DNA from: Christensenellaceae bacterium
GTDB taxonomy: Bacteria > Bacillota > Clostridia > Christensenellales > Borkfalkiaceae
NCBI GenBank assembly: GCA_045596265.1
Contig: JAZOCB010000015.1
Coordinates: 56,534 to 120,533, forward strand
Reading direction: 5' to 3'
DNA length: 64,000 nucleotides
Below are positions 22,728-64,000 of this stretch, in pieces. Numbering within the stretch: position 1 is the stretch's first letter; each line of letters begins with the position of its first letter. Made by a program: the position numbers and the translations under genes. The notes beneath the pieces were generated by a model that was not told the origin of the DNA, made no database searches, and saw only the letters and a list, made by a program, of their open reading frames with translations.

Positions 22728-22923
22728 TTCAGCACCTCCTGCAAAAACATGATAACATTTTGCAAAAAAAAGCGCAATGCAGTGTTTCTTAAATACGTAT
22801 CTTAATTTTTTGAAATAAATTAAGTATCAATACGAGTATAGCATAATTGACGACTTAACACAAAAGTATTTACAAACAATAAAAAAAATATATGCTAACA
22901 ATTTTTAAGAACAATAATAAAAT

Positions 22924-22948
22924 AAAGACGGAAATAAATTCCGTCTTT
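22924..22948 (-). terminator. Stem-loop at the right inner edge of the cassette
   Basis: AAAGACGG-AAATAAATT-CCGTCTTT, T-rich on the minus strand afterwards. It would stop read-through from veg into the cassette. Confidence 0.5.
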
Positions 22949-22988
22949 ATTAATCTAATAAGATTTTTTCACAGCACACAAAAAATTT

Positions 22989-23022
22989 GCAAAAAAGTAG
23001 GGCTATAGGTCGGTTTTTGATT
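22989..23022 (+). repeat. 34-bp perfect direct repeat, right copy
   Basis: Identical to 19619-19652. Confidence 0.95.
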
Positions 23023-25511: not shown

Positions 25512-26054
25512 TTATCTTTTTTCAAAATCATAAACGACCACCCCCGACAGGATAACCTCTGCCCCCGGGATAAGCCCTCCCCCGTCGTAAAGGTATTCCG
25601 TGCGGTCGCGGTAAAATCTTACGCCCATTAATAAAAGCTCCTCTCCGTAATCCTCGCAAGTAAGCGTAGGCGGCGCAAAAGCCTCCTCACGGGCGCCCGA
25701 TCCGTCGGTTTTGGCAAGGCCCCCTGCCGTAAACATAACACCGCCCTTAAGGGAATAATCGTGATAAAAGGTAACCTTAATAAGTCCGCCGTCCACCGTC
25801 GCCCTCACCTTGAGCGTGGCGCTTTTGTCGCTTGCGGGGCTTTTCAGCCCTTGGCTTACGGTATCGCCACCTAAAACAAGGGTGACCTCCTCATTTAAAA
25901 AGACAGTTTTCTTTATATATTGACTGCTGTCAAAAAACAGATCGTATCCTTTTGTCCAAAAGGCAAATATTCCGCTGAAAAAACCCATCGTCACAAGCCC
26001 AAGGCACAGGGCAACCCCAATCGCCACAAGCCTTATCTTAAGCTTTTTATCCAT
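25512..26054 (-). CDS. Membrane-anchored hypothetical protein
   Basis: MDKKLKIRLVAIGVALCLGLVTMGFF signal-anchor followed by a soluble beta-rich domain. The internal Met at 26054 is preferred over the ORF start at 26150. Confidence 0.65.
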   Translation of the reverse strand: MDKKLKIRLVAIGVALCLGLVTMGFFSGIFAFWTKGYDLFFDSSQYIKKTVFLNEEVTLVLGGDTVSQGLKSPASDKSATLKVRATVDGGLIKVTFYHDYSLKGGVMFTAGGLAKTDGSGAREEAFAPPTLTCEDYGEELLLMGVRFYRDRTEYLYDGGGLIPGAEVILSGVVVYDFEKR

Positions 26055-26156
26055 AATATACCTTCTTTGCTTTATTATCCCCCAAATTATACCACTGTCC
26101 GCGGCAGTTGTCAACGGGGACAGAAAAGAAAAGCAATACAGGCAAAACAAAAATAT

Positions 26157-26198
26157 AAAAAAGTAGGCCTATATGCCCGTTATCGGACATATAGGCCT
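26157..26198 (-). terminator. 11-bp perfect hairpin (bidirectional terminator) built on a dispersed-repeat copy
   Basis: AAAAAAGT-AGGCCTATATG-CCCGTTATCGGA-CATATAGGCCT-TTTGTTTTT. It sits directly downstream of 26206..26670. Confidence 0.75.
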
Positions 26199-26205
26199 TT
26201 TGTTT

Positions 26206-26670
26206 TTAATTTTTAATCATATTGTTTTTTATCTTATTTACCATCTCTGTCGAAAAATCGTTCTTATACACCTTTACACAATAATGCTTATTGTTAAATG
26301 CCGATACATGACCAAATCTATTTGCTTTTGGTCTATCGTCGATAAAAATGTAAAAATCTTGACCGATGATCTGATCATATCTCAGCTTTTTTTCTTCAAT
26401 TGAAACAATATCCTTGATATAAACAATATTTTTTACACATAGGGCACTTCTGACAATAATTACGTTATCGAAGAACTCAACCCATTCGCGATCTATCAGA
26501 TTTTTTAGAGCGCAAACCCTTCTAATCAAAAACACATATACCAACAATACACATATAGTCACAATAATATCGCGCCAACAGATCATCAAAGCCAACGGAA
26601 GTATTAGGGACAAAAAGAATCTAATAACTTTTACCTTAACAAATTTTTTGTCTGGCTCTAAATAAAACAT
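26206..26670 (-). CDS. Putative RHS-toxin immunity protein, second (orphan) paralogue
   Basis: Two N-terminal TM helices plus a soluble domain clearly homologous to 26756..27265 (VKNIVYIKDIV.I.E..L.Y......DFY..ID.RP....F.H.S..NNK.YCV..YK.D.S.EMVNKI). AAGGAGG RBS. Confidence 0.7.
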   Translation of the reverse strand: MFYLEPDKKFVKVKVIRFFLSLILPLALMICWRDIIVTICVLLVYVFLIRRVCALKNLIDREWVEFFDNVIIVRSALCVKNIVYIKDIVSIEEKKLRYDQIIGQDFYIFIDDRPKANRFGHVSAFNNKHYCVKVYKNDFSTEMVNKIKNNMIKN

Positions 26671-26755
26671 ATTTTAGCCTCCTTATTTACAAAAAACAAA
26701 GACATCATCTATCCTGTAACAAAAACACCCGAAATGTTATGTTAGTAAAAAAATA

Positions 26756-27265
26756 TTAAGATTCACCTGCAGATTGTTTTTGATTTATCATATCCATAAT
26801 TTTATTTACCATCTCTATAGATAAATCGCATTTATATATCCGAACGCAATATTTTTTGTTGTTGGTCAGCGATATATGATCAAATTCATTGCCCATAGGC
26901 CGATTATCTATAAGCATATAAAAATCTTGTTCTAAGTCCTTAAAGAGGTAACTTAATCTTTCCTCTTTAATATCAACAATATCTTTTATATACACAATAT
27001 TTTTTACGCCCAAAAAGTTTTTTACAACAATAGACTCTTCATAAAACTCAAACCATTCAATAGTTTTCATTAGTTCATAAACATACCATAAATAAATTAT
27101 GATGATGAAAAATAAGGCCACCGCTATGATCGCGATCCTTTCCTTCCAATCCACGCCATCTATAGTCGCTGCAATAAGCAAAAATCCTATATATGGCAAT
27201 GAAGTCACTATCAATATAAATATCAAACTATGAATGCTTTTTTTATCTGGTTTTAAATAAATCAT
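26756..27265 (-). CDS. Putative cognate immunity protein of the RHS C-terminal toxin
   Basis: It lies immediately downstream of the RHS gene, has two TM helices plus a soluble domain, and is very AT-rich. The start MIYLKPDKK (27265) parallels the paralogue's MFYLEPDKK. The ORF opens at 27343, overlapping the RHS 3' end. Confidence 0.65.
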   Translation of the reverse strand: MIYLKPDKKSIHSLIFILIVTSLPYIGFLLIAATIDGVDWKERIAIIAVALFFIIIIYLWYVYELMKTIEWFEFYEESIVVKNFLGVKNIVYIKDIVDIKEERLSYLFKDLEQDFYMLIDNRPMGNEFDHISLTNNKKYCVRIYKCDLSIEMVNKIMDMINQKQSAGES

Positions 27266-27281
27266 CTTGTTGTTTACTTTT

Positions 27282-30200
27282 TTAATTGCAGAATATATCA
27301 AGAACGGTATTGAATAAATTACCAATAAATTCAAATAAATCATTTATTGTGTACTCATTTGTTCTGGACACATAAACATTAACCGCCATATTAGCAGCAG
27401 TAAGAGGACTGTTCATAATTAAGCCAAATATCACGCTTTCCGTTACCTTTAATTTAGCGTATTTATCTATCAAAAATAAACCTCGTCCGATTAAAGACAA
27501 GAAAGCACTCATAGCGCCCGATACAAAAACGGTTTTAAGGTTTATCTCTTTCCAAGATTTTTCATCCAATATTATTTGTGATGCTATATCCCCAACCGCA
27601 CCTACGCTAAACGTCAGACTCAATAATGCTAATATCGATATATGTTTAACAGATGTAATCACTCCAGAAATACCACCAATCAGCGCACCCAATAATATGC
27701 CACCAAATATATTTTGACCGTTTTGATGCGCTTGGACTGCACCGTATGTTCCGCCTAAAATCGCCCCTATTATCGCAGAAATTATTATGCTAATTGCAAT
27801 CCTGCCACTATGGTCCGAATACATAATTGGGTTGTTTTTGCAGTAGCAGTAAAGATCAATACCGCAAAATGTTTTGGGATCTAAATATGAAAAGGCATCG
27901 GGTGAGATCCAACGGCGAAGCAGAGGACTGTAATACCTTGCATTGCAGTAGTAAAGGCCCGTTTCAACGTCGTAGTAATATCCCCTGTATCTAAACGGGT
28001 TAAGGTTGCCAATAAAGTTGGGATCGGCATTTACCACACCGTTTGCATCAAGCACTTTATGATTACCCCAGGCGTCGTACTCATATCGGGCAACAAGGAT
28101 ACCGACACAGTCGGTAAGGCCAATGACGTTGTTTTGTTCGTCACGGACATATTGGTAGCAGTACCCATCTTCCAGGGTGGCTTTTGGATAAATCAAGTCA
28201 GTCCCGTCGTGAAGCTTAAAGCCAACAAGACTGTCCCCATCGTAAAAATAAACCAGCCTTTGGGTTGTGCCGATATTTTCGGCAATGATCTTTGTTCCGT
28301 CCACGAAATAATTTTTATCCGTGGTGCCGGTTTTGCCGATGCGGATATTTTGGTGATCGTAAGCGTAGCTTGTTGTGACGCCGTTGACGGTCACCCCGGT
28401 CAAAAGACCGCCCTTTGACCAAGCGCAGCTGAAGGGCTTATCTGTATCGCCCGTTGCGGATAAAAGGTTGCCGGCGACGTCGTAGGTATAATTTACCTCC
28501 TGATTGCCTACGGTTGCCTTTACTACCCTGCCGGCGCTGTCGTAGAGATAGCAGGTCATTACGTTACCGTTGCCGTCATTTTCAACAACCGTTGACAATC
28601 TGCCCGACTGGTCGTAGGCGTAGGTTTTTTGCCATAAAGTTACTTCCCCTTCGCTACCGGTAAGCTTTTTCACCTCGCTGACCAAACGGTTATTTTGGTC
28701 ATAGGTATAATACATGCTGTAGTTACCTAACGTAGGATCGTCGTAATATGACGTAGAGGTCACCTTTTGCGTTAAAATATTACCCCTTTCGTCGTAAGTG
28801 TATTCTCTTTCGCTGAAATTATCTGGGTCGAGTGAATACCTTACCTTTTTAAAGCGTAGAAGTGTATTTCCGTTGCCATCGGTATCGTAGGTGTAAACAT
28901 AGGTGCTGCCGCGGCCACAGCATATCCTTTTGGTCGCAAGAAGCCCTAAAGGATTATAAGTATATTCGGTAGACAGACATTCTATCTTGGACAACACCCT
29001 ATCGGGGGCGTTGCCAAAATATTTTTCAACACCGGTTATCCTTGGATTTGATAAAACGTTTTCGTCATAGCAAGTATGTGACTGCGATTTATCAAAGGGG
29101 GACGTTGTATATACGGTACCGCTGTTTTCATTTTTGATAATAAAACCGAACGACGTTGATGAGGTAATATCTTCTCTTACACATTTTTTAACGTTTCCGT
29201 CGTAATCAAATTGGTATATATACTGCTTGTCGTTATGTGTGTCCGTTACGGTTAACAACGGCTGGGCAAGCTGACTTGCTCCGCCAAGATTTGCGTATGT
29301 ATAAGTTACGTCATTCGATCCGCTTAAGCTATTGCCTGCAAGTGAACCGTAATGTAAGCCGTGCATCCTTCCATATAAGTCGTAAACGGCTGAAACCACG
29401 TCTTCCGACATCCCGTCCTTAATATATCTGGTTTCAATTTTAGTCGTAGCGGATTCTTCGTCGAAGACCTCTGTTTGAATCTGAACGGGGACTTCCTCTT
29501 CGCCGTTAAAAACTGTGTACGTGGCCGAGTTGCCTTCATGATCGTGAATAATGCCATATTTGACGTAGCCGTCAGTTACCGTGCGCACAAGGCCCTTGTC
29601 GTAGGTAATTTCGTTACGTGCCTTGACTACACCGTTTACCTTTAAGGTAACGGATAAAAGCCTGCCAACGCGGTTGTATTCGTAAAGCTTTTCATGAACA
29701 ATTCCACCGACAGTTAAGCTTTCTTTGGCGATTACGTTAAAAGGCTTGTTATACTCGTACACTATGGTGTTAATGCCGTCGGATTCGCTTTCAAGATAAC
29801 CGTCTTCATCATAGGTCGATACAGCGCATACCATGCGGCCTTCGCGTTCGCCATATGCGTTGCGTCCCAATAAAACTGATTGTACAAGGTTGCCGCTGCC
29901 GTCGTAGGTATATTCCTTGGTTACGCCGTATTCGTCCGTTTCCGAAAGGGTTTGACCGAAGTAATTGACCCTTGACTGACTTAAACTGGAATGATTATTT
30001 ACTGCTGAAACGGCTTTTTCAAGGATAATACCGTCTGCGCCAAAAATCGTTCTTTGCTCGGTGACGTTATATCCGTTTTGTGAAACAAATTTGTTTGTAA
30101 AGGTTAGTGGCAACGCGTAAGCAAGGTTGTCGGCACCGTTGACGGTGAAGGTTAATTCCTTTACCTTTGAAATGCGCTTTTTACCGTTGTTGCAAATAAC

Positions 30201-32591
30201 GTCAAAGCATTCAACGTCGTTTACAGCATATGAATTACGCATTTTGTTTAATACCGTTCTTAACAAATCTTGCTCGGTAAAATAGTGATAAGTATCTTTG
30301 TTGTTTTCAATTATTATGGTATCACTATTATCGGCCTTTGTCAATGTGATTTTGTTAATTTGTGTAAAATAAATTTGGCCGTCGCCAGCTGAAACCAAAA
30401 GATCACTCTTTGCCGTCGGCGCAAAATTGAGGGGGCTCAATTCAATCTGTTGAACAATAAAGTTGTTTAAATTTACAATATTAATTTTTAATTCCTCAAG
30501 CGTAACGACGTCTTTCTCATCTTCGACTTCAGGTAAAGATAATACGATCCCAACCTTTTGCCATGCGTCGCAGGCGGTACCATCAACAAAAACAGAGGCC
30601 GTTTGTTCCTGACAAGTTTCACCGTTCAGGGCAAACTTATATTTTGCCGTAAGCTTTAACCTTTCGCAAATCTCCTTATGCTTCAAATAAAACGAACAAC
30701 CGTAATATTTATTTGCTTTTTCCGTATCGTCACGCCACAAAATGAATTCATCCGGGACGTCGTATATGTATTGACCGTAAGAACCTAAAGCACAAGGTTC
30801 CTCGTTAAATAAAACGCTTCCGCCGGCACCGGCAAGGGTCTTTGTGGATCCCACAGATAAATCCTTTAGACCAATTATTTGCCCTTCGGCGTTTTTAACA
30901 GCTTCAAAGCTGCTGATAATTTTATTTTTACGGTTTAAATAATATATGATTGAAACGTTGTTTTTATTTGTAACAACCGTGCTTAACACCCACTCTGTTT
31001 CGCCAATCATGTTGTAGTCAAACCTTAAAGTGTCTACAACCTTATAATTAGGCTCGTATGCGCCCGCATAACACTGTTTTGCGTACTGGATTTCTTTTAC
31101 ACGACAATCGTCGTCATAATTAATTAATATAACGTTTATTCCGTTAATTTCGGTGACAGCTTTTAAAAGCTCTTTTTCGTCATATGAAAGGCCGTAACGT
31201 TGAATAACCGACGTACCGACTTTTGTTTCAAGCCTAATTAAAGTATTGCCACTATAAACAAATTTTGTCGTCTTTATACAGGACGAGCCTTTGCAAGCTT
31301 TTACTTCGTCAATATTGCCCTGCTCTGTGTACGTAAAAAGCAAGCTTTCGTTATATCCGTCTTCATTGTTATATTGACTTCTTGCATCAAAAATGCGAAC
31401 AAGCTTGTCGCCGTCATAAGAAAATACCTTATGTACGTCACCGTTGATGCCGGCAACTATATCCGTAATACAGCCGTTACTGTTAAAAGTCAGCTTGTTG
31501 TTGCTTTCATCAATAATTTCTACCCCATTGGATTTTTCCTTTAACACAAGCCCAATGCCGTCGCAATCGTGATAAAGCCCCTCATTGCTATCATAAAGCT
31601 TAAACTGATGTAAGTAACCATTGCCGTCCATGTAAGTGTAAGTTTGACCCTGTTTTTTAACAAACTGCTGTACGTTAAGCTTCCATCCTCTTGGCATTTT
31701 AGACAAGGACTCACAAAAGTCTTCACTAATCGTGCTATAAATGGCTGTTACGTCAATTGCCCTGTCATTTGCCCCTACGCTCATGCAAGGCAAGGTATAC
31801 GTCAATCTTCCTGTAGATAAATTTACTTTTGGATTGTCACCGTATTCCCCCTCACTTTTGCAAGTCATTGCCATAAAGCTATCTTCTAGGACGGTAACCT
31901 CTTGCGTGCAAGTTTTTTCATCGTATGAAATAGTCACTGCTTCGTCGCCATATCTTAAAATTTCGGGCGAGTAAGTAAAACCATCCGCAAACGTTTGGTG
32001 GCCACCGTTAGTGTAATTTACGTTTATCGTCATACCGTGGGGATTAAATCTTTCACCGTCAAGATAATGTCTGTATTTTGGCGGCGTGCAAACCTCAATT
32101 GATTGAGTAATAAGCTCGCCATCTTCGTAATAAATCATTTCAAAAACAGGAGCATTTTCGCCGCTGGCATTTATCAAAAAAAGATTTCCGCCGTTAGCTG
32201 TCAGCTCTATATTTATATTTTGCGCTGTCGTTGACGTGGGTAGCATGGCTGACAAGTCAATATCTGCGTTAGTATATGCCCCATAATAGCACGTCTCACC
32301 GTTTGCGAAAAAAGATCCTCCTTCTTTAGGAAAAACCCTTAAATAGATAGAGATTATCTTTTCGAGGGGTACGCTGAAAATGCTTTTATTAATAGTGATA
32401 ACTGACTTGATCTCAAAACGGTCTTCGCTGTCAGAGTTTTTCACGGCAATATCGTCATACTCGTCGGTTTCTAACCAATAAGTTTTTAACGTGCCGTCCT
32501 CGTTCGACTCTTGCTTATAGTTCTTAAATGAGAACCACGTGCTGTCTGCAATTTTTGTTTTTGTTAATACCTGTGTGTTTTCTGTACTCAT
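27282..32591 (-). CDS. RHS/YD-repeat polymorphic toxin (1769 aa) with a glycine-zipper membrane-type C-terminal domain
   Basis: Many YD repeats (YTYDxxGN..., YxYDxxGR...). The RHS core end reads RYYSPLLRRWISPDAFSYLDP...LYCYCKNNPIMYSDHSG. The roughly 172-aa CT (about 27285-27800) is hydrophobic and Gly-rich (GAILGGTYGA, GGILLGALIGGISG). The N-terminal region has an Ig-like KYRHYLDGERF...VTISY module. No signal peptide or LXG/WXG motif was seen. Confidence 0.9.
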   Translation of the reverse strand: MSTENTQVLTKTKIADSTWFSFKNYKQESNEDGTLKTYWLETDEYDDIAVKNSDSEDRFEIKSVITINKSIFSVPLEKIISIYLRVFPKEGGSFFANGETCYYGAYTNADIDLSAMLPTSTTAQNINIELTANGGNLFLINASGENAPVFEMIYYEDGELITQSIEVCTPPKYRHYLDGERFNPHGMTINVNYTNGGHQTFADGFTYSPEILRYGDEAVTISYDEKTCTQEVTVLEDSFMAMTCKSEGEYGDNPKVNLSTGRLTYTLPCMSVGANDRAIDVTAIYSTISEDFCESLSKMPRGWKLNVQQFVKKQGQTYTYMDGNGYLHQFKLYDSNEGLYHDCDGIGLVLKEKSNGVEIIDESNNKLTFNSNGCITDIVAGINGDVHKVFSYDGDKLVRIFDARSQYNNEDGYNESLLFTYTEQGNIDEVKACKGSSCIKTTKFVYSGNTLIRLETKVGTSVIQRYGLSYDEKELLKAVTEINGINVILINYDDDCRVKEIQYAKQCYAGAYEPNYKVVDTLRFDYNMIGETEWVLSTVVTNKNNVSIIYYLNRKNKIISSFEAVKNAEGQIIGLKDLSVGSTKTLAGAGGSVLFNEEPCALGSYGQYIYDVPDEFILWRDDTEKANKYYGCSFYLKHKEICERLKLTAKYKFALNGETCQEQTASVFVDGTACDAWQKVGIVLSLPEVEDEKDVVTLEELKINIVNLNNFIVQQIELSPLNFAPTAKSDLLVSAGDGQIYFTQINKITLTKADNSDTIIIENNKDTYHYFTEQDLLRTVLNKMRNSYAVNDVECFDVICNNGKKRISKVKELTFTVNGADNLAYALPLTFTNKFVSQNGYNVTEQRTIFGADGIILEKAVSAVNNHSSLSQSRVNYFGQTLSETDEYGVTKEYTYDGSGNLVQSVLLGRNAYGEREGRMVCAVSTYDEDGYLESESDGINTIVYEYNKPFNVIAKESLTVGGIVHEKLYEYNRVGRLLSVTLKVNGVVKARNEITYDKGLVRTVTDGYVKYGIIHDHEGNSATYTVFNGEEEVPVQIQTEVFDEESATTKIETRYIKDGMSEDVVSAVYDLYGRMHGLHYGSLAGNSLSGSNDVTYTYANLGGASQLAQPLLTVTDTHNDKQYIYQFDYDGNVKKCVREDITSSTSFGFIIKNENSGTVYTTSPFDKSQSHTCYDENVLSNPRITGVEKYFGNAPDRVLSKIECLSTEYTYNPLGLLATKRICCGRGSTYVYTYDTDGNGNTLLRFKKVRYSLDPDNFSEREYTYDERGNILTQKVTSTSYYDDPTLGNYSMYYTYDQNNRLVSEVKKLTGSEGEVTLWQKTYAYDQSGRLSTVVENDGNGNVMTCYLYDSAGRVVKATVGNQEVNYTYDVAGNLLSATGDTDKPFSCAWSKGGLLTGVTVNGVTTSYAYDHQNIRIGKTGTTDKNYFVDGTKIIAENIGTTQRLVYFYDGDSLVGFKLHDGTDLIYPKATLEDGYCYQYVRDEQNNVIGLTDCVGILVARYEYDAWGNHKVLDANGVVNADPNFIGNLNPFRYRGYYYDVETGLYYCNARYYSPLLRRWISPDAFSYLDPKTFCGIDLYCYCKNNPIMYSDHSGRIAISIIISAIIGAILGGTYGAVQAHQNGQNIFGGILLGALIGGISGVITSVKHISILALLSLTFSVGAVGDIASQIILDEKSWKEINLKTVFVSGAMSAFLSLIGRGLFLIDKYAKLKVTESVIFGLIMNSPLTAANMAVNVYVSRTNEYTINDLFEFIGNLFNTVLDIFCN

Positions 32592-45235: not shown

Positions 45236-45370
45236 TTACGCAGAAAGTTTATGACGACCTTTTGCTCTTCTTCTCTTTAAAACGTTTCTTCCGGTTTTAG
45301 AAGCCATTCTCTTTCTGAAGCCGTGTACTTTTGATCTCTGTCTTTTTTTGGGTTGGTAAGTTCTTTTCAT
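45236..45370 (-). CDS. rpmH: 50S ribosomal protein L34 (44 aa; below the ORF-track cutoff)
   Basis: Manual translation of the minus strand gives [44 protein letters not shown]. Confidence 0.97.
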
Positions 45371-45437
45371 GATATTTCTCCATTTTCGCTTGAAGCGAAT
45401 GTTTTATTTCTTATTTTTTTAACAAAATAGCCTTAAT

Positions 45438-45466
45438 ATTGTATTTTATTTTACCGCTTTTGTCAA
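45438..45466 (-). promoter_or_regulatory. SigA-type promoter of rpmH-rnpA
   Basis: Minus strand: TTGACA, 17-nt spacer, TACAAT. Confidence 0.6.
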
Positions 45467-45531
45467 CTTTATTTATCTATTATTATAAATAATTTTAAGC
45501 CTTAAAGGGCTTTTTTGTAAACTTTCGCGCC

Positions 45532-46635
45532 TTAAGCGGTCATTCTGACGGGCAAAATCAAATAGAGGTATTCGTCGTCGGAGTAGGGCTTGATAACGCA
45601 CGGTGATATGGGCGAGTTAAGGTTGAAGTTGATAAACTCGTCGTTGATGCATCTTAAGCAATCGATAAGATAGCGGGAGTTAAACGCAATGGTAAGATCC
45701 TTACCCTCTAAATTGATGATAAGATTTTCCTTTACGTTGCCCATTTCGGAGTCTGACGATACGTCGACGTAGTTTTCGTGGATGTCAAACTTGACGATAT
45801 TCTTCATGACCTTTGCAACGATGGAGGCACGCTCTATTGAAGAATACAAAAGCTCTCTGTTTACCCTGAAGACCGTGATAAAGTCGTCGGGGATGATGCG
45901 CTTATAGTCAATGTATTCACCCTCTAAAAGCCTGGTTAAGAAGATCGTGTTGTCAACGCTTATCATAAGGGAGTTATCCTGTACGATAACGGTAACGTAG
46001 TCCTCGTCCTTTTCTAAAAGCCTTGTGATCTCAACAAGTGCCCTTGAGGGTACTATGGCCTTGAAGGTGCCCGTTGACTGACGGATGTTCTTTTTACAAA
46101 CAGCCAAGCGGAAGCCGTCAAGTGCAACGCAGGTAAGGGTGTCGGCGTTGACCTCTAATAAGCAGCCCTTTAAAATTGGACGGGAGTCGTCTTGTGAGCA
46201 GGCAAAGCTTGTCCTTTGAATAACGTCCTTAAAATACTTCTGATTGATGACGAAGGAGTTCTGGTTGATATCCTTCTTTATTATAGGATAGCCGCTTGCC
46301 GAAAGGGCCTGGATGTAACCCTCCGACGCGGAATAGGCAATTTTTAGCCTGCCGTCGTCGCCGACGAAAAGCTCTATATCCTCCTCACCCTCAAGCTTTT
46401 TAACAAAGTCGGCAAAAAGCCTGCCGGGTACGACAACGTCGCCTTCCTGATAGGTTTCGGCAACGATGGTCTTTTCGATGGCGATCTCCATATCGGTTGC
46501 GGTAAGGATAAGGCTGTCACCCTTAACGGACAGCTTGATACCTTCTAAAAGCTGGTTGGGCGATTTTTGACTTACGGCCTTGACGACCTTATTGACTGCG
46601 CTGGATAAATCAATGCCCTTGACGATTGTCTTCAT
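45532..46635 (-). CDS. dnaN: DNA polymerase III beta sliding clamp
   Basis: Full-length beta-clamp pattern (LEGIKL...L.LTATDMEIAIE...RLLEGEYIDYKRIIP). Confidence 0.95.
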   Translation of the reverse strand: MKTIVKGIDLSSAVNKVVKAVSQKSPNQLLEGIKLSVKGDSLILTATDMEIAIEKTIVAETYQEGDVVVPGRLFADFVKKLEGEEDIELFVGDDGRLKIAYSASEGYIQALSASGYPIIKKDINQNSFVINQKYFKDVIQRTSFACSQDDSRPILKGCLLEVNADTLTCVALDGFRLAVCKKNIRQSTGTFKAIVPSRALVEITRLLEKDEDYVTVIVQDNSLMISVDNTIFLTRLLEGEYIDYKRIIPDDFITVFRVNRELLYSSIERASIVAKVMKNIVKFDIHENYVDVSSDSEMGNVKENLIINLEGKDLTIAFNSRYLIDCLRCINDEFINFNLNSPISPCVIKPYSDDEYLYLILPVRMTA

Positions 46636-46900
46636 ACTTATTCTCCATTTTTTTTATTAATTAAGTAGTATTAGTAGTAGTGTCGTGTGGATATGTTGAT
46701 ATGATTTTCAATGACAAAAAACGTGTGGTTTCATATGGGATTTTACGACAAAAACCGTCCGTTTTTGCTGTGGATAGGCTGTTGAGAAAACTGTAGGTAA
46801 TTTGTGGATAGCCCTTTTTTTGGTGGATAACAATCTGACCCGCCCGATTTATACTACATTATTTATCTATTATATTATATATAAAAAGTACGCAAAAAGC
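46636..46900 (-). other. incC-like oriC module: DnaA boxes, GC step, DnaA-trios, AT tract, directly upstream of dnaN
   Basis: Read toward dnaN (minus strand), the module runs as follows. Boxes: TTATCCACC (46822-46830), CTATCCACA (46803-46811 and 46769-46777), ATATCCACA (46686-46694). Then CGACA. Then CTA CTA CTA ATA CTA CTT (46663-46680). Then AATTAATAAAAAAAA. A further AT-rich tract lies at 46858-46890. Confidence 0.7.
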
Positions 46901-47093
46901 AACCGAATAGTGTGTTTTTTTTCTTAAAATTATTATTATGGGAAAATTTTCGCCCACCTTTTCAGCCAACTTAAAAAAAGGCCTTAAAAGTATTGTTCAT
47001 TTGTTGATAATTTGCCGCCTAAACTGTTGAAAAGCGGATAAAATTATGGTACAATAAAAAAGCAACAAAACCCAACGATTTTTTAAGGACTTA

Positions 47094-47783
47094 TTGGCTG
47101 TGAAGGAGATTTTAAAGGGCCTTTTATCCCGTCCCGATGTGGATAACTTTGTGGATTACTACAGGCTTCTGGTGGAAAATAATAAAAAATTCAACCTGAC
47201 CTCCGTCACGGATGAAAGGGACGTTTGCGTCAAGCATTTTTACGACAGCGTCTGCGGTGCGCCCCTTATACCCGAGGGGGCTAAAGTCATTGAAATAGGC
47301 TCCGGCGGGGGCTTTCCTTCCGTTCCCCTTAAGCTTGTAAGGGACGATATTGACTTTACCCTTGTTGAGGCCACGGGAAAAAAGTGCGGCTTTTTAAACG
47401 GTGTAAAGGAATTTTTCCGATTTGAAAACTTTACCGTCGTCAACGGCCGTGCGGAGGAGCTTGGCAAGCAGCCGGAATTCAGAGAGTGCTTTGATATTGC
47501 CGTGGCAAGGGCGGTTGCTTCCTTAAACAGTCTTTTAGAATACCTTTTACCCTTCGTTAATGTTGGCGGCAAGGTAATCTGCTATAAGGGCAGTAACTAT
47601 AAGGAGGAGCTTAAAAAATCCCAAAACGCCATAAAGGCCTTGGGCGGCCGATTGGAGAAAGAGGTCCCTTACGATCTTCCCGACGGCGCAGGAAGCCGTT
47701 GCCTTGTGGTTATAAAAAAGATAAGCCCCACAAGCGCTAAATATCCACGGACTGAAGCCAAGATAAGGAAGACACCTTTATGA
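47094..47783 (+). CDS. rsmG: 16S rRNA (guanine527-N7)-methyltransferase RsmG
   Basis: FNLTS......V..KHF.DS ... IEIGSGGGFPSVPLK ... VARAVA. TTG start. Confidence 0.9.
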   Translation: MAVKEILKGLLSRPDVDNFVDYYRLLVENNKKFNLTSVTDERDVCVKHFYDSVCGAPLIPEGAKVIEIGSGGGFPSVPLKLVRDDIDFTLVEATGKKCGFLNGVKEFFRFENFTVVNGRAEELGKQPEFRECFDIAVARAVASLNSLLEYLLPFVNVGGKVICYKGSNYKEELKKSQNAIKALGGRLEKEVPYDLPDGAGSRCLVVIKKISPTSAKYPRTEAKIRKTPL

Positions 47784-57331: not shown

Positions 57332-58018
57332 ATGGTTAATACGTTTAACTCTATGGACACGATCGTGCTTCTTATTATTGTCGGGTTTTTGATTTACGGC
57401 CTGGCGCGTGGATTTATGAAGCAGGTTATCGGTCTGATTTGTATTGCGGCTTCATTTATCCTCGCTTATACCTTAAGCGGCGTCCTTTGTAACGCCATTT
57501 GCAACGGTACGACAATTGACGAAGGCCTTGCGACCTCTATAAGGGGGATCTTCTCTACCGTTGACGTAACAATCAATAAGGCTGACACCCTGGAAACTTT
57601 ATCCGTGCTTAACCTGCCGGAGTTTTTAAATTCCGCTATCTTAAAGTACGCCGAAAAAATCCCCTTTGATGAATTCAACCTTGCACAGATAATTTCCGAA
57701 ACGGTAACAAGATACGTTTTAAGCGGCGGCTCCTTTATGATAATACTTATCGTTTCAAGGCTGCTTCTTATCCTGGTCAAAAAATTACTTTCCTTCATCG
57801 TTGATCACACCCCCCTTAAGGTGGTTGACAGAATACTCGGCGCAGTGGTCGGTCTTGTGAAAGGTATATTGATAGTTTACCTTGGGGTATTCCTTTTAAG
57901 CGTTATACCCATTGAAGGATTAAACGGCGTGAAGGAGCTTCTCTCTACTTCCGTTATAGCGAACTTCTTTATGTCCTACAACTTGTTCGGTTGGCTTTTG
58001 GGCTTACTGTTTACATAA
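57332..58018 (+). CDS. cvpA: CvpA-family membrane protein
   Basis: N-terminal DTIVLLIIVGFLIYGLARGFMKQV plus four TM helices typical of CvpA. Confidence 0.75.
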   Translation: MVNTFNSMDTIVLLIIVGFLIYGLARGFMKQVIGLICIAASFILAYTLSGVLCNAICNGTTIDEGLATSIRGIFSTVDVTINKADTLETLSVLNLPEFLNSAILKYAEKIPFDEFNLAQIISETVTRYVLSGGSFMIILIVSRLLLILVKKLLSFIVDHTPLKVVDRILGAVVGLVKGILIVYLGVFLLSVIPIEGLNGVKELLSTSVIANFFMSYNLFGWLLGLLFT

Positions 58019-58041
58019 GGGCAACCTAAGCAAAATATTTT

Positions 58042-58080
58042 AAAGTCGGGCTTTTTGCGTCCGACTTTATTATTTTTATT
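58042..58080 (+). terminator. Terminator after cvpA
   Basis: AAAGTCGG-loop-CCGACTTT followed by ATTATTTTTATTT. Confidence 0.6.
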
Positions 58081-58175
58081 TAATAGTTCGCAAAATACCA
58101 AATTGGCGCAAGAAAATATTTATGCGCCAATTTGACTTTTTTAATCAAAAATCGGGCAAAAAAGAGCCTTCCGCT

Positions 58176-58198
58176 AAAATGAATTGTGAGAGAATGGC
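58176..58198 (+). repeat. 23-bp perfect inverted repeat, left arm
   Basis: AAAATGAATTGTGAGAGAATGGC is the exact reverse complement of 59475-59497. Confidence 0.95.
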
Positions 58199-58802
58199 TT
58201 AATTTTTTCACGGGTCAAATTTTGTCCATTCTCTCTGGCGAAAAACACCGTTTTTGGTCGAAAATTTAGTATTTTTTTGATATTTTGAAGTTTTTTCGCT
58301 GAGGGAAGTAGCCCCACGGCTCACCGGTTAGGAATCCCCTAATAAAGCCAAAAACTACCAAAGAAAAGGACTTATCTTAAAAGCTTGGGGTAAAGGTGTG
58401 TGCTGACGTCTGATATGATAAAGTTTTATGACAAATATTTGCTAAAATTGCGCAAATAAAAGTTCTTGCGCCAATTTAATAAATTGAACAATAATCAGAT
58501 TTAAAGCCTGGCGGTATGCATATTTTTTATTAAAAATATTCAGCAAAGATCAAATTTGCCCCAAAAAGCGGCTTAAAATTTCCGTGAAACATTTCCCCTC
58601 CCCCATACTACTTTTAAAAATTAATTCAAACCTTAATTATGCTTGATTTTAACCCAAAATGGCCTGAAGTCGGGCAAAAAATGGCCAAAAATGGGCCAAA
58701 ATCAGGGATAAAAATGCTTAAGTTTTAAGCAAAAATTTCTTCAAAATTAGCCCATCTTTTGCTTTTGTGAAACATTTCGGGTTTTTGAGGGGATTTTTTT
58801 GA

Positions 58803-58818
58803 TGTTTCACGTGAAATT
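58803..58818. promoter_or_regulatory. parS-like site (14/16)
   Basis: TGTTTCACGTGAAATT versus the Firmicutes parS consensus TGTTNCACGTGAAACA. Confidence 0.65.
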
Positions 58819-58892
58819 TTAGCGCATAAATATTAATATAGGGTGCATAAATATTAATAAATTACGTTCAATGTGTGCACAGTACATTAAAT

Positions 58893-58906
58893 AGAACATA
58901 TGTTCT
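58893..58906. promoter_or_regulatory. LexA (Cheo/SOS) box candidate
   Basis: AGAACATATGTTCT is a perfect palindrome containing GAAC-N4-GTTC (Gram-positive consensus CGAACATATGTTCG). Confidence 0.55.
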
Positions 58907-58927
58907 AATTATATATGGCGCAAAAAC

Positions 58928-58943
58928 TGTTTCACGTGAAACA
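58928..58943. promoter_or_regulatory. parS centromere site (perfect 16-bp palindrome)
   Basis: TGTTTCACGTGAAACA matches TGTTNCACGTGAAACA at all defined positions. parA/parB lie 4 kb downstream. Confidence 0.85.
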
Positions 58944-59202
58944 TGGTTGATGCTATAAGGTGTGATTAGGCTAAAATATGCCAAAAGCCACTTTAAATAG
59001 CGTAGGTGGCGATAAAAACGGCTAAAGCCTGATGACTTGTTGGCGGATAAGAGAGTGTCTGGTGTTGGTTTTAGGCTTAATTGACGATATGATAGAATAA
59101 ATGGGACGTAATATGATATTATGATCAGGTTAAGACGTTGGCTTATAAAAATCCCAATGGATTGTGGCGAGGGGCGGCGAAAACGGCTCGGTTAAAATCA
59201 AA

Positions 59203-59225
59203 GCCATTCTGTTAGAATTCATTTT
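59203..59225 (+). repeat. Third, diverged copy of the 23-bp repeat (same orientation as the right arm)
   Basis: GCCATTCTGTTAGAATTCATTTT versus GCCATTCTCTCACAATTCATTTT. Confidence 0.7.
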
Positions 59226-59474
59226 AAAATCAGGCCATATTTGACGAATTTTGACTTAATTTAAGGAAAAGCCAACTTTGGTTAACGTCTTAACGTTGTC
59301 ACTTTCCGTCGCCTTAATAAGCTTGGATAGAGGGAGTGTTTGTTAGGCTGCTTGTTTGTGTTAGCAGGTAGCAAGAGGGCATTTTGAAGCGTGAACTTCA
59401 TTTTGTCTTATTATGAGAAAAAATATCGACAAATTATGACAAAATTGCTTAAATTTCAGTCTGGAAATATTACG

Positions 59475-59497
59475 GCCATTCTCTCACAATTCATTTT
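59475..59497 (+). repeat. 23-bp perfect inverted repeat, right arm
   Basis: GCCATTCTCTCACAATTCATTTT. Confidence 0.95.
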
Positions 59498-60647
59498 AAC
59501 GGACGTTGAAAAATAAGTTAATTTAAGGACTTTTTTTTAAATATTGATTTGTTGCGCCTATCATTTTTTGCGTCTTTTTTTGCTTAAAGTTTGGTTGGCG
59601 CGTTGATTTCAGGACAAATAGAAAAGCAATCAAAGGGCGTTCCGCAGCCACGGTAACCTCTTAAGCTTGACGGTGGGTAAAAAATGTAATAGTCAGTAAA
59701 AAATTGATAGTAATTTGAGTTAGGTACTTCAAAATTTATTGATTCCGGGGGGGGGATAGTTTATATTTTAGCTAAATAAGCTTAAAAAGCTCTTCTGATA
59801 GGGCGCTTGGTTCAGTTTTGTCCGCGGATCCTCTTAATTTTACCGCAATTATGGTTAATAGGTTAATATGTAGGGGAATATACTATAAATTGCATGATAA
59901 TATCACAATATCTCGGCTTTTATATTGAAAAACGGTACGTTATCATATAATTAATATAAAAACCGGCGTTTTGTGACGTTTGTTCTGATTTTAATTAATA
60001 ATATTAGAATTTAGGTGTTTTTTCTTCAAATATGGCAATATTTATCACGCTTTATTGTTTTTTAGATAATTTACCTTGTTTTTGTTGATTTTTTTATAAA
60101 TTCAGGCAAAATTGGCGGTAAATTGAGGTTTTTTATAATATTTGCATCAAAATCCTTATTTCATAAGTAAAATCTTATGTAAGACTAAAATATCCTTGAT
60201 TTTTGACAAAAATAATGGATTTTAAGGGAATTTTGCCCGGTAAATCAATATATCGGCTGATTTTAAATAAAAAACCGTATAAATCCGTTATTTCCTATAA
60301 AACTGCGTAAAAAGACCGTCAATTTGTTCAAAAACCACCCAAAAATCCCGATTTTTCCTTTAAAACCCCCCTTTTTTATCAATTTTTGGTTAAAAGAAGC
60401 AGGTTTTGCTATCACTTAACGGAGATGATTTTTACTTAAAATAAAGGCTGCTTTTCTAAAAAAGATATTAACATTTTGTGTATAATTATAAATTTTGAAA
60501 TTTGCATCTAAATCTATAAGTCGATTAACAATTTTGATAATGTATAAATATGCAATTATGGTTAATATTTGATAAAAAATGGCAAAAATAAGGGTTATTT
60601 AGCCAAAAATGCGGATATTTTTCCGAAAAAAGAAGTGAAAAAATTTT

Positions 60648-60675
60648 AAAAAAGTTGGCCAATAAGCCGATTATC
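60648..60675 (+). repeat. Dispersed repeat family copy
   Basis: AAAAAAGTTGGCCAATAAGCCGATTATC. Confidence 0.7.
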
Positions 60676-60927
60676 GTCACTTTTTGCAAAATTTTACAAA
60701 TAATTTCACAGCGGAAAATTTTGCCAATTTTGCCATAAAAAATTTGATATTTGATGCTAAATCCGTTCAAAAATTTTTTTCTTTTTTTCACATGTGAAGA
60801 TTTTTCCAAAAAATAATGATAATTGAAAAATCGCCGCAAATTTTTATAAATTAATTTGCTAAAAATATTTATGTATGATACAATTATTAATACTAAATTT
60901 AATATCTACCAGTTATTGGAGGAATAA

Positions 60928-62970
60928 ATGAAGAATTTCGGCAAAATTTTAATATGGCTCGTCATAATTGTTCTCGTCGGGCTACTTGCGGCGACCTATT
61001 TGTACGACCACACTTCTGATTTGTCAACCTTCTGGGAATCCGCCGGTGTCGTCTTCGTTGACGACGTTGACAGCTACCGCAAAGGTGATAATTACGTTTT
61101 AAAGGGAAAGGGTGAAGACGGTGCAGACATTACCGCCACCGTCCAGTACGTTTCCTATGAGGACAGCTATATCGTTCTCGACCACAGGGAGATCAACAAG
61201 GTTTACGTTGACGCATACAAAATCAAGGGCTACATGGATAAGCAGCTTAAGGTTGAAGCTAACTTTAACCGCGCCGACTATGAGTTTGACGTTATCAAGA
61301 TGCTTCAGGCCTGCGGCTTAAAGCTTGAGGCAAGCGATCCCAACCAGGGCTCCTTCTGGTCGGATATGCTTATGCCCCTTATGACCCTTGGTATCGGCAT
61401 ATTTATTATCGTGCTTTTCATCCGCCAGGCAAAGGGCGCCAACAGCGGCGCAATGGACTTCGGTAAAACAAAGGCTCAGGTCATCACCAATATTAAGGTA
61501 AGATTTTCCGATGTTGCCGGCGCAGAAGAAGAAAAGCAGGAGCTTCAGGAGGTCGTTGAATTTTTGAAGAACCCTCAAAAGTTTACGGCGCTTGGCGCAA
61601 GGACGCCAAAGGGCGTGCTTCTCGTCGGTAATCCCGGTACGGGTAAGACCCTCTTTGCCAAGGCAGTTGCAGGTGAGGCAAGCGTACCCTTCTTCTCCAT
61701 AAGCGGCTCCGACTTTGTTGAAATGTTCGTCGGCGTAGGCGCATCAAGGGTAAGGGACCTGTTTAACACGGCCAAAAAGAACCAGCCCTGTATTATTTTT
61801 ATTGACGAGATCGACGCGGTCGGCCGTCAGCGTGGCGCAGGTCTTGGCGGTGGCAACGACGAAAGAGAGCAGACCTTAAACCAGATCCTCGTTCAGATGG
61901 ACGGCTTCGAAAGCAACGACGGCATAATCGTTATGGCGGCCACCAACCGTGCCGACGTATTAGACCCAGCCCTCATAAGGCCGGGCAGGTTCGACAGGAC
62001 CATTTACGTCAACATGCCCGACGTCAAGGGTCGTGAGGCTATTTTAAAGGTCCACGCACGCAACAAACCCCTGGCCCCTGACGTAAACTTCAAGGTGCTT
62101 GCCCGTATGACGGGCGGCTTCTCGGGCGCAGATCTGGCGAACCTTTTAAACGAGGCCGCTATCCTTGCCGCAAGACAAAACAGGAAATTTTTGACCAATG
62201 AAGACCTTTACGAGGGTATCAATAAGGTTCTTTTAGGCCCACAGAAGCGTTCAAGGATCGTCACCGAAACCGACAAGCGCATCACCGCCTACCACGAATC
62301 CGGTCACGCAATATTAGCAGGGCTTTTACCCGGCTGTGACCCCGTACATGAGGTATCAATAATCCCAAGGGGTGCCGCAGGCGGCTACACCATGACCCGC
62401 CCCGACAACGACGACGCCTACCTTGCAAAATCAAGGCTTTTAGACGATCTGGTAATGACCATGGGCGGCCGCGCCGCTGAGGAGATCATCATCCACGAGG
62501 TAACCTCCGGCCCCAGCGCAGACATCACCCACGTCACCAAGATCGCCAAGCGTATGGTTACCGAATGGGGTATGAGCGAAAGGCTTGGCCCCGTATGCTA
62601 CGGCAGCGGTACGGAGATCTTCCTCGGCCGCGACTATCAGACCAAGGCCGACTACAGTGAGGAAACCGCAAAGCTTATCGACAGCGAGGTCCAGAGGATC
62701 ATTAACGAAAGCTATAAAAAGGCAGTTGAGCTTTTAACCGCCAATAAAAATCTTCTCGACACCATGGCAAGGGTCCTTATCGAAAGGGAAACCATCTACA
62801 CCGACGAGGTAAGGATGATCATGGACGGCAAGTCCGCCCAGGAGGTAATGGACGCCATGGACAGCAAGGATAAAAGTTCGGGATCAAACCCCTTCAGCCG
62901 TATGGAAAGCTCTTTAAATAAGAGCGACGACGACGGGCTTGTAAAACCCGACGGCACACTTAATCATTAA
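60928..62970 (+). CDS. ftsH: ATP-dependent zinc metalloprotease FtsH
   Basis: AAA+ Walker [12 protein letters not shown], Zn motif HESGHA. GGAGG RBS. Confidence 0.97.
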
Positions 62971-63069: not shown

Positions 63070-63843
63070 ATGGGCAGAATAATTGCAATATCCAACCAAA
63101 AAGGCGGCGTCGGTAAGACGTCGACCTGCATTAACTTCGCCGCAGGCCTTGCCCTTAAGGGCAAAAAGGTCCTCGTTTGCGATATGGACGCCCAGGGCAA
63201 CGCTACCACGGGCCTTGGCATATCCAAAAGCGAGCAGAGAAAGAGCGTTTATGACGTTCTGATCAATGAAGTTCCTGCAAAAAGCGTGATCGTCCCCACC
63301 AAGGTGGACAATTTATCCGTTTTGCCATCAAGCATTGATCTTGCCGGTGCCGAGGTAGAGCTTGTTTCCCTTAAAGGTCGTGAAAAACGTTTAGCGTATG
63401 CACTTTCCAAGGTCAAGGACGAGTACGATTATATAATTATCGACTGCCCGCCGGCCATAGGGCTTCTCACCATAAACGCCCTTACGGCGGCTGACGGGGT
63501 GCTTATTCCCATCCAAAGCGAGTATTACGCATTGGAGGGCTTAAGCCAGCTTGTAAACACCATCAAGCTTGTCGTCAAGGCATTAAATCCAAGCCTTACC
63601 CTTGAGGGCGTGCTTATAACCATGTACGACGGCCGCGCGCTTATATCCCGTCAGATCAAGGCGGAGATTGAAAGCTATTTCGGGGACAAGGTCTTTGATA
63701 CGGTCATTCCCAGAAACATCCGCGTGTCTGAGGCCCCCAGCTACGGCGTGCCCGTAATGATACACGACAAGCGCTGCCGCGGCGCGCAGGGCTACGTTGC
63801 CTTCGTTGAGGAATACCTTTCAAAGGGCGGTAACCAAATTTAA
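63070..63843 (+). CDS. soj: Chromosome partitioning ATPase ParA/Soj
   Basis: Deviant Walker A NQKGGVGKTST. Full-length ParA pattern. Confidence 0.95.
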   Translation: MGRIIAISNQKGGVGKTSTCINFAAGLALKGKKVLVCDMDAQGNATTGLGISKSEQRKSVYDVLINEVPAKSVIVPTKVDNLSVLPSSIDLAGAEVELVSLKGREKRLAYALSKVKDEYDYIIIDCPPAIGLLTINALTAADGVLIPIQSEYYALEGLSQLVNTIKLVVKALNPSLTLEGVLITMYDGRALISRQIKAEIESYFGDKVFDTVIPRNIRVSEAPSYGVPVMIHDKRCRGAQGYVAFVEEYLSKGGNQI

Positions 63844-63866: not shown

Positions 63867-64000
63867 ATGGCAAAAGGATTGGGCAAGGGCTTTGCAGCCC
63901 TTTTAGCAGACACTCAGGAGGATTATAGCAGGTTTTCCTTTGAAAGCCTTGGCGCCGAGGGTGAGGAGATTAAAAACAGTGTTATAGAAATCAAGATCGA
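63867..64000 (+). CDS. spo0J: ParB/Spo0J, N-terminal fragment running off the right edge
   Basis: ATG 63867 follows AGGAGGG. MAKGLGKGFAALL is the typical ParB N-terminus. It lies downstream of soj. Confidence 0.8.
   Translation, partial: MAKGLGKGFAALLADTQEDYSRFSFESLGAEGEEIKNSVIEIKI

Follow-up and report, generated by a model that had tools for sequence, protein, structure and literature searches.

We examined a 64-kb stretch of contig JAZOCB010000015.1, hereafter the window, from an uncultured gut Clostridia metagenome-assembled genome (MAG) whose nearest relatives bear the labels Christensenella, Christensenellales or Clostridia MAGs. Our subject is the 2.9-kb interval at 58019-60927, here called the island, which lies between cvpA and the genes ftsH, parA and parB and which we consider as a candidate centromere of the ParABS type. 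The sole open reading frame (ORF) of at least 60 amino acids in the island is a low-complexity one of 104 amino acids on the minus strand (60525-60839). A survey of ORFs of at least 20 amino acids returned no conserved or plausible peptide in the island, and stop codons are dense in its six frames. Other gaps between ORFs of at least 120 amino acids in the window measure about 1.1 kb at most, and the largest of them contains rpmH, rnpA and yidD. GC content in 1-kb bins across the island is 0.33, 0.36 and 0.26, compared with 0.43-0.53 in the surroundings. A first-pass annotation of this DNA had described the interval as ORF-free, AT-rich and dense in repeats. The first two claims are borne out by these figures, and nearly all of the repeats it listed are present, with small corrections to their coordinates (Table 1).

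A search of all 64 kb for parS with up to three mismatches returned only two sites, against 0.36 expected by chance. Both are in the island, where two parS had been noted, and one of them is perfect and the other has two mismatches. The first-pass annotation had also placed two parS half-sites at 58575 and 58768 and a tandem GCATAAATATTAATA pair at 58825. These elements exist at slightly different positions: the half-sites begin at 58584 (GTGAAACATTTC) and 58767, and the tandem copies at 58824 and 58845. Half-parS sites are bound by ParB in Pseudomonas aeruginosa (PMC10419367).

The equivalent gap was compared among relatives obtained from an FtsH scan that kept one genome per species and yielded 80 loci, designated here by L numbers. 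In the closest relatives (L012-L016, L018, L019 and L024), an ORF-free, AT-rich gap of 2.0-3.7 kb likewise separates cvpA from ftsH(-parA-parB). The FtsH proteins of gap-keeping relatives are 58-78% identical to that of the window (69-78% in L012-L016), and gap GC is 0.25-0.34 vs 0.38-0.51 for the locus as a whole. In L013 the gene order is yyaC-like, cvpA, gap, ftsH, parA, parB and rplI. Its single ParB, to which the N-terminus encoded at the edge of the window corresponds, carries ParB_N and HTH_ParB domains. Only short collinear blocks of these gaps align, and the remainder is unalignable. Kept inside this drifting sequence are a parS module, a 20-bp motif and about 0.9 kb of phased A/T tracts.

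The parS module has the same order in the window and in L012-L016. It starts with the half-site GTGAAACAT, followed about 180 bp on by the half-site CGTGAAACATTTCGG(G/T)TT and 37 bp further by a near-consensus parS, after which come GCGCATAAA, TGCATAA and finally a perfect parS. The elements GC(G/A)CATAAA and then TGCATAA, 3' of parS-1, are conserved in all six genomes. Across 15-22 kb loci of the eleven closest relatives there are two to four parS per gap, and every parS with at most two mismatches falls in the gap, except for one in L022 and three in L028. Because the module recurs in relatives only inside the equivalent gap, it is more than a chance occurrence. In about 25 loci, two full parS stand 40-45 bp apart (mostly 43) at a distance of 215-310 bp upstream from ftsH, and in many of these a third site lies just after ftsH. 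More distant relatives display a full parS where half-parS 2 sits, 36-45 bp (mostly 43) ahead of the next parS. Half-parS 2 descends from an ancestral parS pair with a spacing of about 43 bp, whose left member has lost all but its right half. In the clade of the window this remaining half is still invariant, and the module lies 1.6-2.8 kb from ftsH. L012-L015 also have an intact parS 185-288 bp before ftsH, where the window retains only a decayed palindrome. Other lineages have ORF-free islands of their own, of 0.9-3.4 kb with 3-10 parS. Among other Clostridia MAGs, L079 displays ten parS within 0.65 kb (1815-2442) directly after a gene pair of parA/parB size, and L078 displays four in a 3.4-kb ORF-free gap (5280-8680).

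The island is origin-proximal, and the origin itself we infer from DnaA boxes and gene context. dnaN (45532-46635, minus strand) is followed by rpmH, rnpA, yidD, yidC and jag, and eight DnaA boxes with at most one mismatch cluster at 46686-47158 beside rsmG, about 11-12 kb from the island. This gene order is unusual for an origin region: at 45236-47158 dnaN and the rpmH-rnpA-yidD-yidC-jag genes immediately downstream share a strand, dnaA is missing from between them and is not seen at the locus, and the boxes occupy the intergenic region of dnaN and rsmG together with the first part of rsmG. Being AT-rich, origin-proximal and repeat-rich, the island could itself be taken for part of the replication origin, as a DNA-unwinding element or a second oriC module, and the strongest A/T phasing outside the gap indeed falls at the DnaA-box region (46501-46601). 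We find this hardly credible. The island has one DnaA box (at most one mismatch) against the eight at 46686-47158, a k-mer survey of the relatives' gaps revealed no DnaA-box enrichment, and with the boxes clustered 11 kb away we rejected the island as oriC.

All of the sequence-level properties of a ParABS centromere that we tested were found, namely a consensus site, parA together with parB, an origin-proximal position and conservation in relatives. In its parS part the island appears to be an unexceptional chromosomal ParABS centromere. The first-pass annotation had offered a ParB loading or spreading platform among its candidate explanations. This suggestion is supported by the location of the only parS of the window upstream of ftsH-parA-parB, near the origin and within a module conserved in relatives, and a role in ParB loading can be regarded as well supported.

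Meanwhile, comparison of strains indicated how the rest of the island evolves. Contigs encoding an identical CvpA in independent assemblies from other samples (L002-L005), one same-species contig coming from GCA_017415225.1, are collinear through the island at 93-97% identity, and therefore the region is no assembly artefact. The island is present and collinear in every same-species contig that spans it. Seven of the ten contigs with identical cvpA (L001, L005-L010) stop inside it, between 58162 and 59747, which points to breaks in assembly brought about by strain heterogeneity or by low coverage of this AT-rich DNA. Among four strains the island diverges by 6.4-7.1%, compared with 3.5% at 4-fold degenerate sites and about 1% of sites in the coding flanks. 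It is quiet in three stretches only: at the parS pair (58732-58831), where a single variable site makes these 100 bp the least variable in the left and middle of the island; at 60632-60731; and in the 96 bp that precede ftsH (60832-60927), which lack variable sites. Within the island, variation is lowest over the 300 bp next to ftsH (2.0% vs 6-7%). Indels among strains occur at 58032-58131 and 59932-60031. Searches with other queries added little: a CvpA-based scan of the genome collection found no relative, a CvpA protein search gave a single homologue (43% identical, on a 3-kb contig ending right after cvpA), and the exact FtsH was not on record.

The right half of the island displayed a strong helical phasing. 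An AAA/TTT indicator has a periodicity of 10.1 bp over about 59760-60640, with normalised power up to 45 in 400-bp subwindows. Elsewhere in the window this power reaches at most 17 among 603 subwindows, a value exceeded by 10 of the 25 inside the gap, and mononucleotide and block shuffles reach maxima of 13-20. Written in rows of 10.1 nt, the segment is 87-93% A/T at three phases (6-8) and 57-61% at four others over about 87 consecutive turns, with G and C restricted to about five phases. A tandem-repeat origin of the signal was rejected, as Tandem Repeats Finder finds no array in 59760-60640. Two wedge models predict an end-to-end to contour ratio of 0.20-0.27, compared with 0.67-0.68 for shuffles and 0.80-0.85 for coding controls (an AT-rich one included), figures that, given the wedge parameters used, are indicative only and of which the phasing is independent. 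A sequence period below the helical repeat points to a shallow left-handed superhelical path, as in the standard argument for nucleosomal DNA.

In L012-L015 the same signal, with a period of 10.0-10.2 bp, occupies the same position, from about 1300 to 300 bp upstream of the ftsH ATG, and the phased segments of these genomes align neither mutually nor with the window. The 10.1-bp phasing is also retained in all four strains. Because phasing is kept where sequence is not, these observations suggest selection on DNA shape. A test for shape-preserving polymorphism, in the form of A-T changes at the A/T-rich phases, gave a weak and non-significant trend (8 of 24 sites, compared with 22 of 127 in the remainder of the gap). 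The parS module itself is covered by a zone of weaker, 10.5-bp phasing (about 58400-59200), which also spans its A-tracts, the GGCCAAAAAT runs that had been noticed before. In many short-gap relatives, the best-phased subwindow of the whole 20-kb locus holds the parS pair. In L019 a further 1.1 kb or so upstream of the yyaC-like gene is also ORF-free (about 5700-6600, or -4261 to -3661 from ftsH); it has a phasing power of 41 at 10.3 bp, as strong as that of the window, and no parS.

The third conserved component is the 20-bp motif AAAATGAATTCTAACAGAAT (also rep2), of which the window and L012-L015 hold three to six copies per island; at up to five mismatches in 23 nt it is absent from all other parts of the window and of the L012-L015 loci. 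The three copies of the window (A-C in Table 1) correspond to the 23-bp inverted pair plus third copy that the first-pass annotation had reported, and which we recovered. That annotation had noticed neither the conservation of this repeat among species as a bipartite site nor the 0.9 kb of 10.1-bp phasing, the two traits that make the island unusual. Variants sharing the ACAGAAT core occur in L016 (TTTAAACGTTCTGACACAGAAT) and L018 (AAACGCAACCAGACAGAATGG), whereas L017, L019 and L024 lack the motif. In L016, a 44-nt GC-rich inverted repeat (512-555 and 2857-2900, 91% complementary) encloses the whole 2.3-kb module of parS and 20-bp motifs, which could be an invertible segment or have been inserted from a foreign source. 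Downstream of 14 of 27 motif copies lies an inverted partner, in which the 7-nt core recurs as its reverse complement with no more than one mismatch, and in 13 of these 14 the distance is 32-33 nt, where shuffled flanks predict 1.5; the same test upstream of the motif copies found none. The partner of copy A complements the variant core of that copy (GAGAGAATGG...CCATTCTCTC). The sequence that separates motif and partner is not conserved, motif units are 212-270 bp apart in several genomes, and both orientations occur within one island.

Since the distance is fixed and the spacer arbitrary, a protein contacting two sites about four helical turns apart fits better than an RNA hairpin. The motif bears no resemblance to Staphylococcus aureus ricS1 (GTTTGTCTGAGGTTAGAC), and an identity as a ricS site was rejected. 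A metagenome scan with a 17-mer of the motif returned, among the matches listed, only chance ones, none of which had parS and at least two motif copies likewise arranged. An iteron-type plasmid origin or partition region, with closely spaced iterons of 17-22 bp beside a rep gene, does not describe the array either: motif copies are 135-390 bp apart within it, and neither a rep gene nor plasmid similarity was found. We see no convincing match between the motif and what we take to be the consensus sequences of sigma-A, sigma-H, sigma-54, Spo0A, CodY or Noc. Its half-site (A/G)TTCTGT matches what we take to be the SinR half-site, GTTCTYT, at 6 of 7 positions, a tentative lead only.

The motif also raises the question of whether the island encodes non-coding RNAs, either large structured ones, as the first-pass annotation had proposed, or tandem small RNAs with the 20-bp motif as a 5' handle or hairpin. 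The region is long and ORF-free, the motif holds a 5+3+5 palindrome (ATTCT-AAC-AGAAT) and a downstream complementary 7-mer, the change in copy A preserves complementarity, and the 212-270 bp spacing of motif units recurs among genomes. We nevertheless judge this reading very improbable. At the gathering threshold Rfam returned nothing in the window or in the gaps of six relatives, and at a relaxed threshold (E up to 10) only noise of at most 22 bits in the window; ARAGORN detected no tRNA or tmRNA genes. GC content is under the genome average, and in RNAalifold of the best-conserved block the covariation term is unfavourable (+0.91), only the invariant parS halves being paired. The folds of the 27 motif units are weak and inconsistent, and a loop of 32-33 nt with fixed length and arbitrary sequence is not RNA-like, so that the motif as an RNA hairpin was rejected; copies also occur in both orientations within one island. 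Because the bulk of the island diverges about twice as fast as 4-fold sites, large structured RNAs and pseudogenes are both unlikely.

The same fast divergence, at or above the neutral rate, is what would be expected if the island were decaying DNA, derived from a mobile element, a plasmid region or dead genes, with parS as its sole functional part. The strain indels, several two-copy repeats that resemble old duplications, the variable gap length among lineages (0.3 to 3.7 kb) and the many same-species contigs that break inside the island are all compatible with such decay. We consider it quite improbable, as blastn against 72,556 plasmid and 50,697 phage records gave no match and no ORF remnant, of a recombinase, rep or other gene, emerged from the stop-codon survey (no translated protein-database search was made). 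All six frames are full of stop codons, both here and in relatives, including the units between motif copies of L013 and L016. The island occurs in every strain, and family-level relatives have it at the same locus, which speaks against the cargo-less mobile-element or plasmid remnant suggested previously. In addition, a gap of 2-3.7 kb persists in relatives with FtsH 60-78% identical despite the usual deletion bias of bacteria, and neutral decay would not maintain phasing and a fixed-distance motif partner where sequence is not conserved.

Based on these findings, we postulate that the island is probably the origin-proximal centromere of the chromosome, acting as DNA and not via a transcript or a protein. 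ParB dimers would load at the full parS, perhaps aided by the half-sites, as cytidine triphosphate (CTP) clamps and slide over the gene-free flanks. The curved segment would fold into a compact loop or superhelix and so keep a plectoneme apex in place beside parS. Bridging and condensation by ParB, and perhaps the loading of SMC, would in turn be favoured. Intrinsic curvature is known to pin plectonemes (PMC6301789), and supercoiling enhances ParB condensation, ParB itself not pinning plectonemes (PMC11602141). Because curvature pins plectonemes and ParB condenses supercoiled DNA more readily, the curved segment could favour condensation of the partition complex. The bipartite 20-bp sites would bind a sequence-specific architectural protein, with a role comparable to RacA-ram or RicO-ricS. 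These roles of the curved DNA and of the motif are inferred. As a tentative extension, which we hold to be possible though less likely than not, the island may be a composite 'regional' centromere in which ParB-parS, a superhelically curved track of about 0.9 kb (placing a supercoil apex or wrapping around a protein core) and the bipartite 20-bp plus 7-bp site organise the partition complex and/or SMC loading, with selection on DNA shape and spacing and not on sequence.

Several observations weigh against these proposals, besides the indicative nature of the curvature figures. Gap length ranges from 0.3 to 3.7 kb among lineages, and many relatives carry the parS pair in an intergenic region of 0.3-1 kb, 215-310 bp from ftsH. 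Because these relatives manage with a short intergenic region, an island of 3 kb is not required for ParABS, and drift specific to the lineage could account for its expansion. Genomes also differ in how the motif array is oriented relative to parS, and no candidate protein was identified for the 20-bp motif. Moreover, the curved segment and the motif, which lie between parS and the ftsH promoter, could serve the regulation of ftsH-parAB instead.

Taken to its full extent, this last objection makes the DNA to the right of parS mainly an oversized regulatory region of ftsH-parA-parB, in which curvature renders the promoter responsive to supercoiling or temperature, the motif copies are operators of a repressor or activator and parS is incidental at the far end. 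Some 290 bp separate the end of the curved segment from the ftsH ATG, a position kept in L012-L015, the last 300 bp before ftsH are those that vary least, and promoter-like sites are enriched (23 vs 13.9 expected). The short-gap relatives, with their parS pair so close to ftsH, further suggest that partition sites and promoter are old neighbours. We regard this reading as unlikely. Known upstream curved activator elements span tens of bp, which the curved segment, at about 0.9 kb (about 87 turns), far exceeds; the motif copies are 1.4-2.7 kb from the promoter and in both orientations, and the absence of the motif from the remainder of the 64-kb window would be unusual for the regulon of a transcription factor. 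Regulation of this kind is compatible with a centromere and does not exclude it.

Comparison with known systems sets apart what is ordinary and what is unusual in the island. The F-plasmid centromere sopC consists of twelve tandem 43-bp repeats, each with a SopB site. It resembles the parS pair of about 25 relatives, and the spacing found here, in that ParB-family sites are about 43 bp apart on one helix face; here, however, the pair has two sites only, of chromosomal parS sequence, and is not on a plasmid. The par element of pSC101 is reportedly, in accounts by Wahle and Kornberg from 1988 and by Miller, Beaucage and Cohen from 1990, a cis partition element that is a strong gyrase site and acts via plasmid superhelicity. 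It is similar to the island as a protein-free cis element tied to partition with a proposed topological action, and differs in being about 375 bp long, without ParB or parS, and on a plasmid. A limited literature search found no chromosomal parS region described with a second bipartite motif or a curved segment of about 0.9 kb, and to our knowledge there is none. The nearest analogies are sopC of F for the 43-bp spacing, par of pSC101 as a topological element of partition, and origin anchors of the RacA/RicO type.

Clusters of parS are known from P. aeruginosa (four sites near oriC) and Corynebacterium glutamicum (ten), the sites being dispersed in Bacillus subtilis (PMC4368675, PMC7083940, PMC10419367, PMC7022226). 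The island shares with chromosomal ParABS centromeres the 16-bp consensus TGTTTCACGTGAAACA, the origin-proximal position beside parAB, the clustering of sites and half-sites that are possibly bound. Many parS of model species lie within or between ordinary genes, whereas here a gene-free, AT-rich island of about 3 kb is dedicated to them. What is unusual is this dedicated island, together with the array of bipartite motifs and the curved track of 0.9 kb with its 10.1-bp phasing. RacA-ram of B. subtilis, RocS of Streptococcus pneumoniae and RicO-ricS of S. aureus provide sequence-specific, non-parS sites or anchors in the origin region of these Firmicutes (ricS being intergenic) that cooperate with ParB/SMC in origin positioning (bioRxiv 10.64898/2026.03.06.710092). 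Their sites span 600-700 kb, whereas the 20-bp motif is confined to one stretch of 1.5 kb; ricS1 and ram are unrelated to it in sequence, and no RacA- or RicO-like gene was identified here. Like curved DNA that pins plectonemes (PMC6301789) and phased A-tract clusters of bacterial genomes (PMC4132750), the curved segment has A/T tracts at the helical period, and curvature sets the position of plectoneme tips in vitro. It differs from those clusters in its length of about 87 consecutive turns and its fixed position beside a centromere. Its period, 10.0-10.2 bp in the window clade, also departs from the A-tract period of about 11 bp typical of bacterial genomes.

If our proposal is correct, DNA shape and supercoil positioning would seem to be part of centromere function, with a gene-free flank, an exceptionally long curved segment of 10.1-bp period and a second site of fixed geometry kept amid drift. 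This has implications for the understanding of bacterial centromeres, which are usually described as short parS scattered among ordinary genes. If the curved DNA and the motif regulate ftsH-parAB instead, they would still provide a clear case of selection on DNA shape without sequence conservation. The influence of surrounding DNA on ParB condensation and SMC loading has been studied mostly on artificial substrates, and the island supplies concrete sequences for single-molecule assays of ParB, SMC and plectonemes.

Table 1 Features of the island and its flanking genes (positions in the window)
Feature	Position	Strand	Remarks
cvpA (Colicin_V family), left flank of the island	57332-58018	+	Pfam PF02674, E = 1.5e-21; same left neighbour in relatives
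Intrinsic terminator of cvpA	58041-58079	+	11-pair stem, then T run
Inverted repeat AAATTGGCGCA-N12-TGCGCCAATTT	58100-58133		
Motif copy A, AAAATGAATTGTGAGAGAATGGC	58176-58235	+	Inverted partner CCATTCTCTC (58226-58235), 32 nt after the AGAGAAT core
Half-parS 1, GTGAAACATTTC	58584-58595	+	GTGAAACAT invariant in six genomes
Phased GGCCAAAAAT A-tracts between the half-sites	58656-58701		Within the 10.5-bp zone
Half-parS 2, GTGAAACATTTCGGGTTT	58767-58784	+	Invariant block in six genomes
parS-1, TGTTTCACGTGAAATT	58803-58818		14/16 match (2 mismatches)
Tandem GCATAAATATTAATA	58824-58859	+	Two copies, 21 bp apart
LexA/Cheo-box-like palindrome GAACATATGTTC	58894-58905		
parS-2, TGTTTCACGTGAAACA	58928-58943		Perfect; perfect parS also after the pair in L013-L016
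Motif copy B	59203-59225	-	Exact match to AAAATGAATTCTAACAGAATGGC; no partner found
Motif copy C	59475-59497	-	23 bp identical to copy A; partner 32 nt away with 2 mismatches
A/T tracts phased at 10.1 bp, about 0.9 kb	59760-60640		Predicted strongly curved or superhelical DNA
27-nt dispersed repeat AAAAAGTTGGCCAATAAGCCGATTATC	60649-60675	+	About 250 bp before ftsH, in low-variability 100 bp
Decayed parS-like palindrome TTTCACATGTGAA	60786-60798		
ftsH promoter-like site and ribosome-binding site	60856-60927	+	TTGCTA-17-TACAAT with TG; GGAGG at 60918
ftsH	60928-62970	+	Pfam Peptidase_M41 and AAA
parA (soj)	63070-63843	+	Pfam AAA_31, CbiA, ParA
parB, 5' end	63867-64000	+	First 44 codons, leaves the window; translation MAKGLGKGFAALLADTQEDYSRFSFESLGAEGEEIKN... 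matches the N-terminus of L013 ParB

The island displayed further repeats of less certain meaning. At its left end, the 12-bp hairpin of the first-pass annotation is present, at 58100-58133 and not 58098-58134. Of the three copies of TTGCGCCAATTT reported with it, those at 58466 (plus strand) and at 58100 (minus strand) are exact, and the one at 58123 matches at 11 of 12 positions only. TTGGCGCA/GCGCAA motifs appear again at 58444-58477 and at 58917-58925, the latter beside the perfect parS, and GGCGCAAAA is found in 9 of 12 related gaps, often just ahead of parS. In the right half, the 16-bp direct repeat GCAATTATGGTTAATA (59845 and 60552) and the two copies of ATTTGCATC (60140 and 60500) were both recovered; relatives show nothing equivalent to them, and they may simply have arisen by local duplication long ago.

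The significance of the LexA-type palindrome noted earlier is doubtful. GAACATATGTTC is indeed present and is the only GAAC-N4-GTTC of the window, about one being expected by chance in 64 kb, and it is kept, with one mismatch, only in L012, the closest relative. It is overlapped by a minus-strand promoter-like site (58935-58908) that no conserved ORF follows (MFY..., 26 amino acids; 14 in L012). The GTGAAA halves of both parS are possible -35 elements of two convergent promoter-like sites (GTGAAA-16/17-TATAAT/TAATAT), at 58908-58935 (minus) and 58811-58839 (plus), which face each other across this palindrome with no conserved product between them.

The dispersed repeat that had been placed at 60648 is a 27-nt element starting at 60649. 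Its second copy (14250-14276, 93% identical) lies about 75 bp before a histidine-kinase gene (14349). The element contains GCCGATTAT, and related copies occur in L012 (after ftsH) and in L014. It resembles what we take to be the -10 element of a sigma-D/sigma-28-type promoter, and TAAA stands at the right distance only at the ftsH copy.

Outside the island and the origin, three perfect DnaA boxes (TTATCCACA) in direct orientation and exactly 31 bp apart (18154-18224) sit about 100 bp ahead of the gene for an L-serine dehydratase (18320-19540). The coding stretches at 20000-23000 and 26000-28000, near an ORF of 1769 amino acids (27282-32591), have a GC content of 0.32-0.35 and a strongly negative GC skew, and may have been horizontally acquired.

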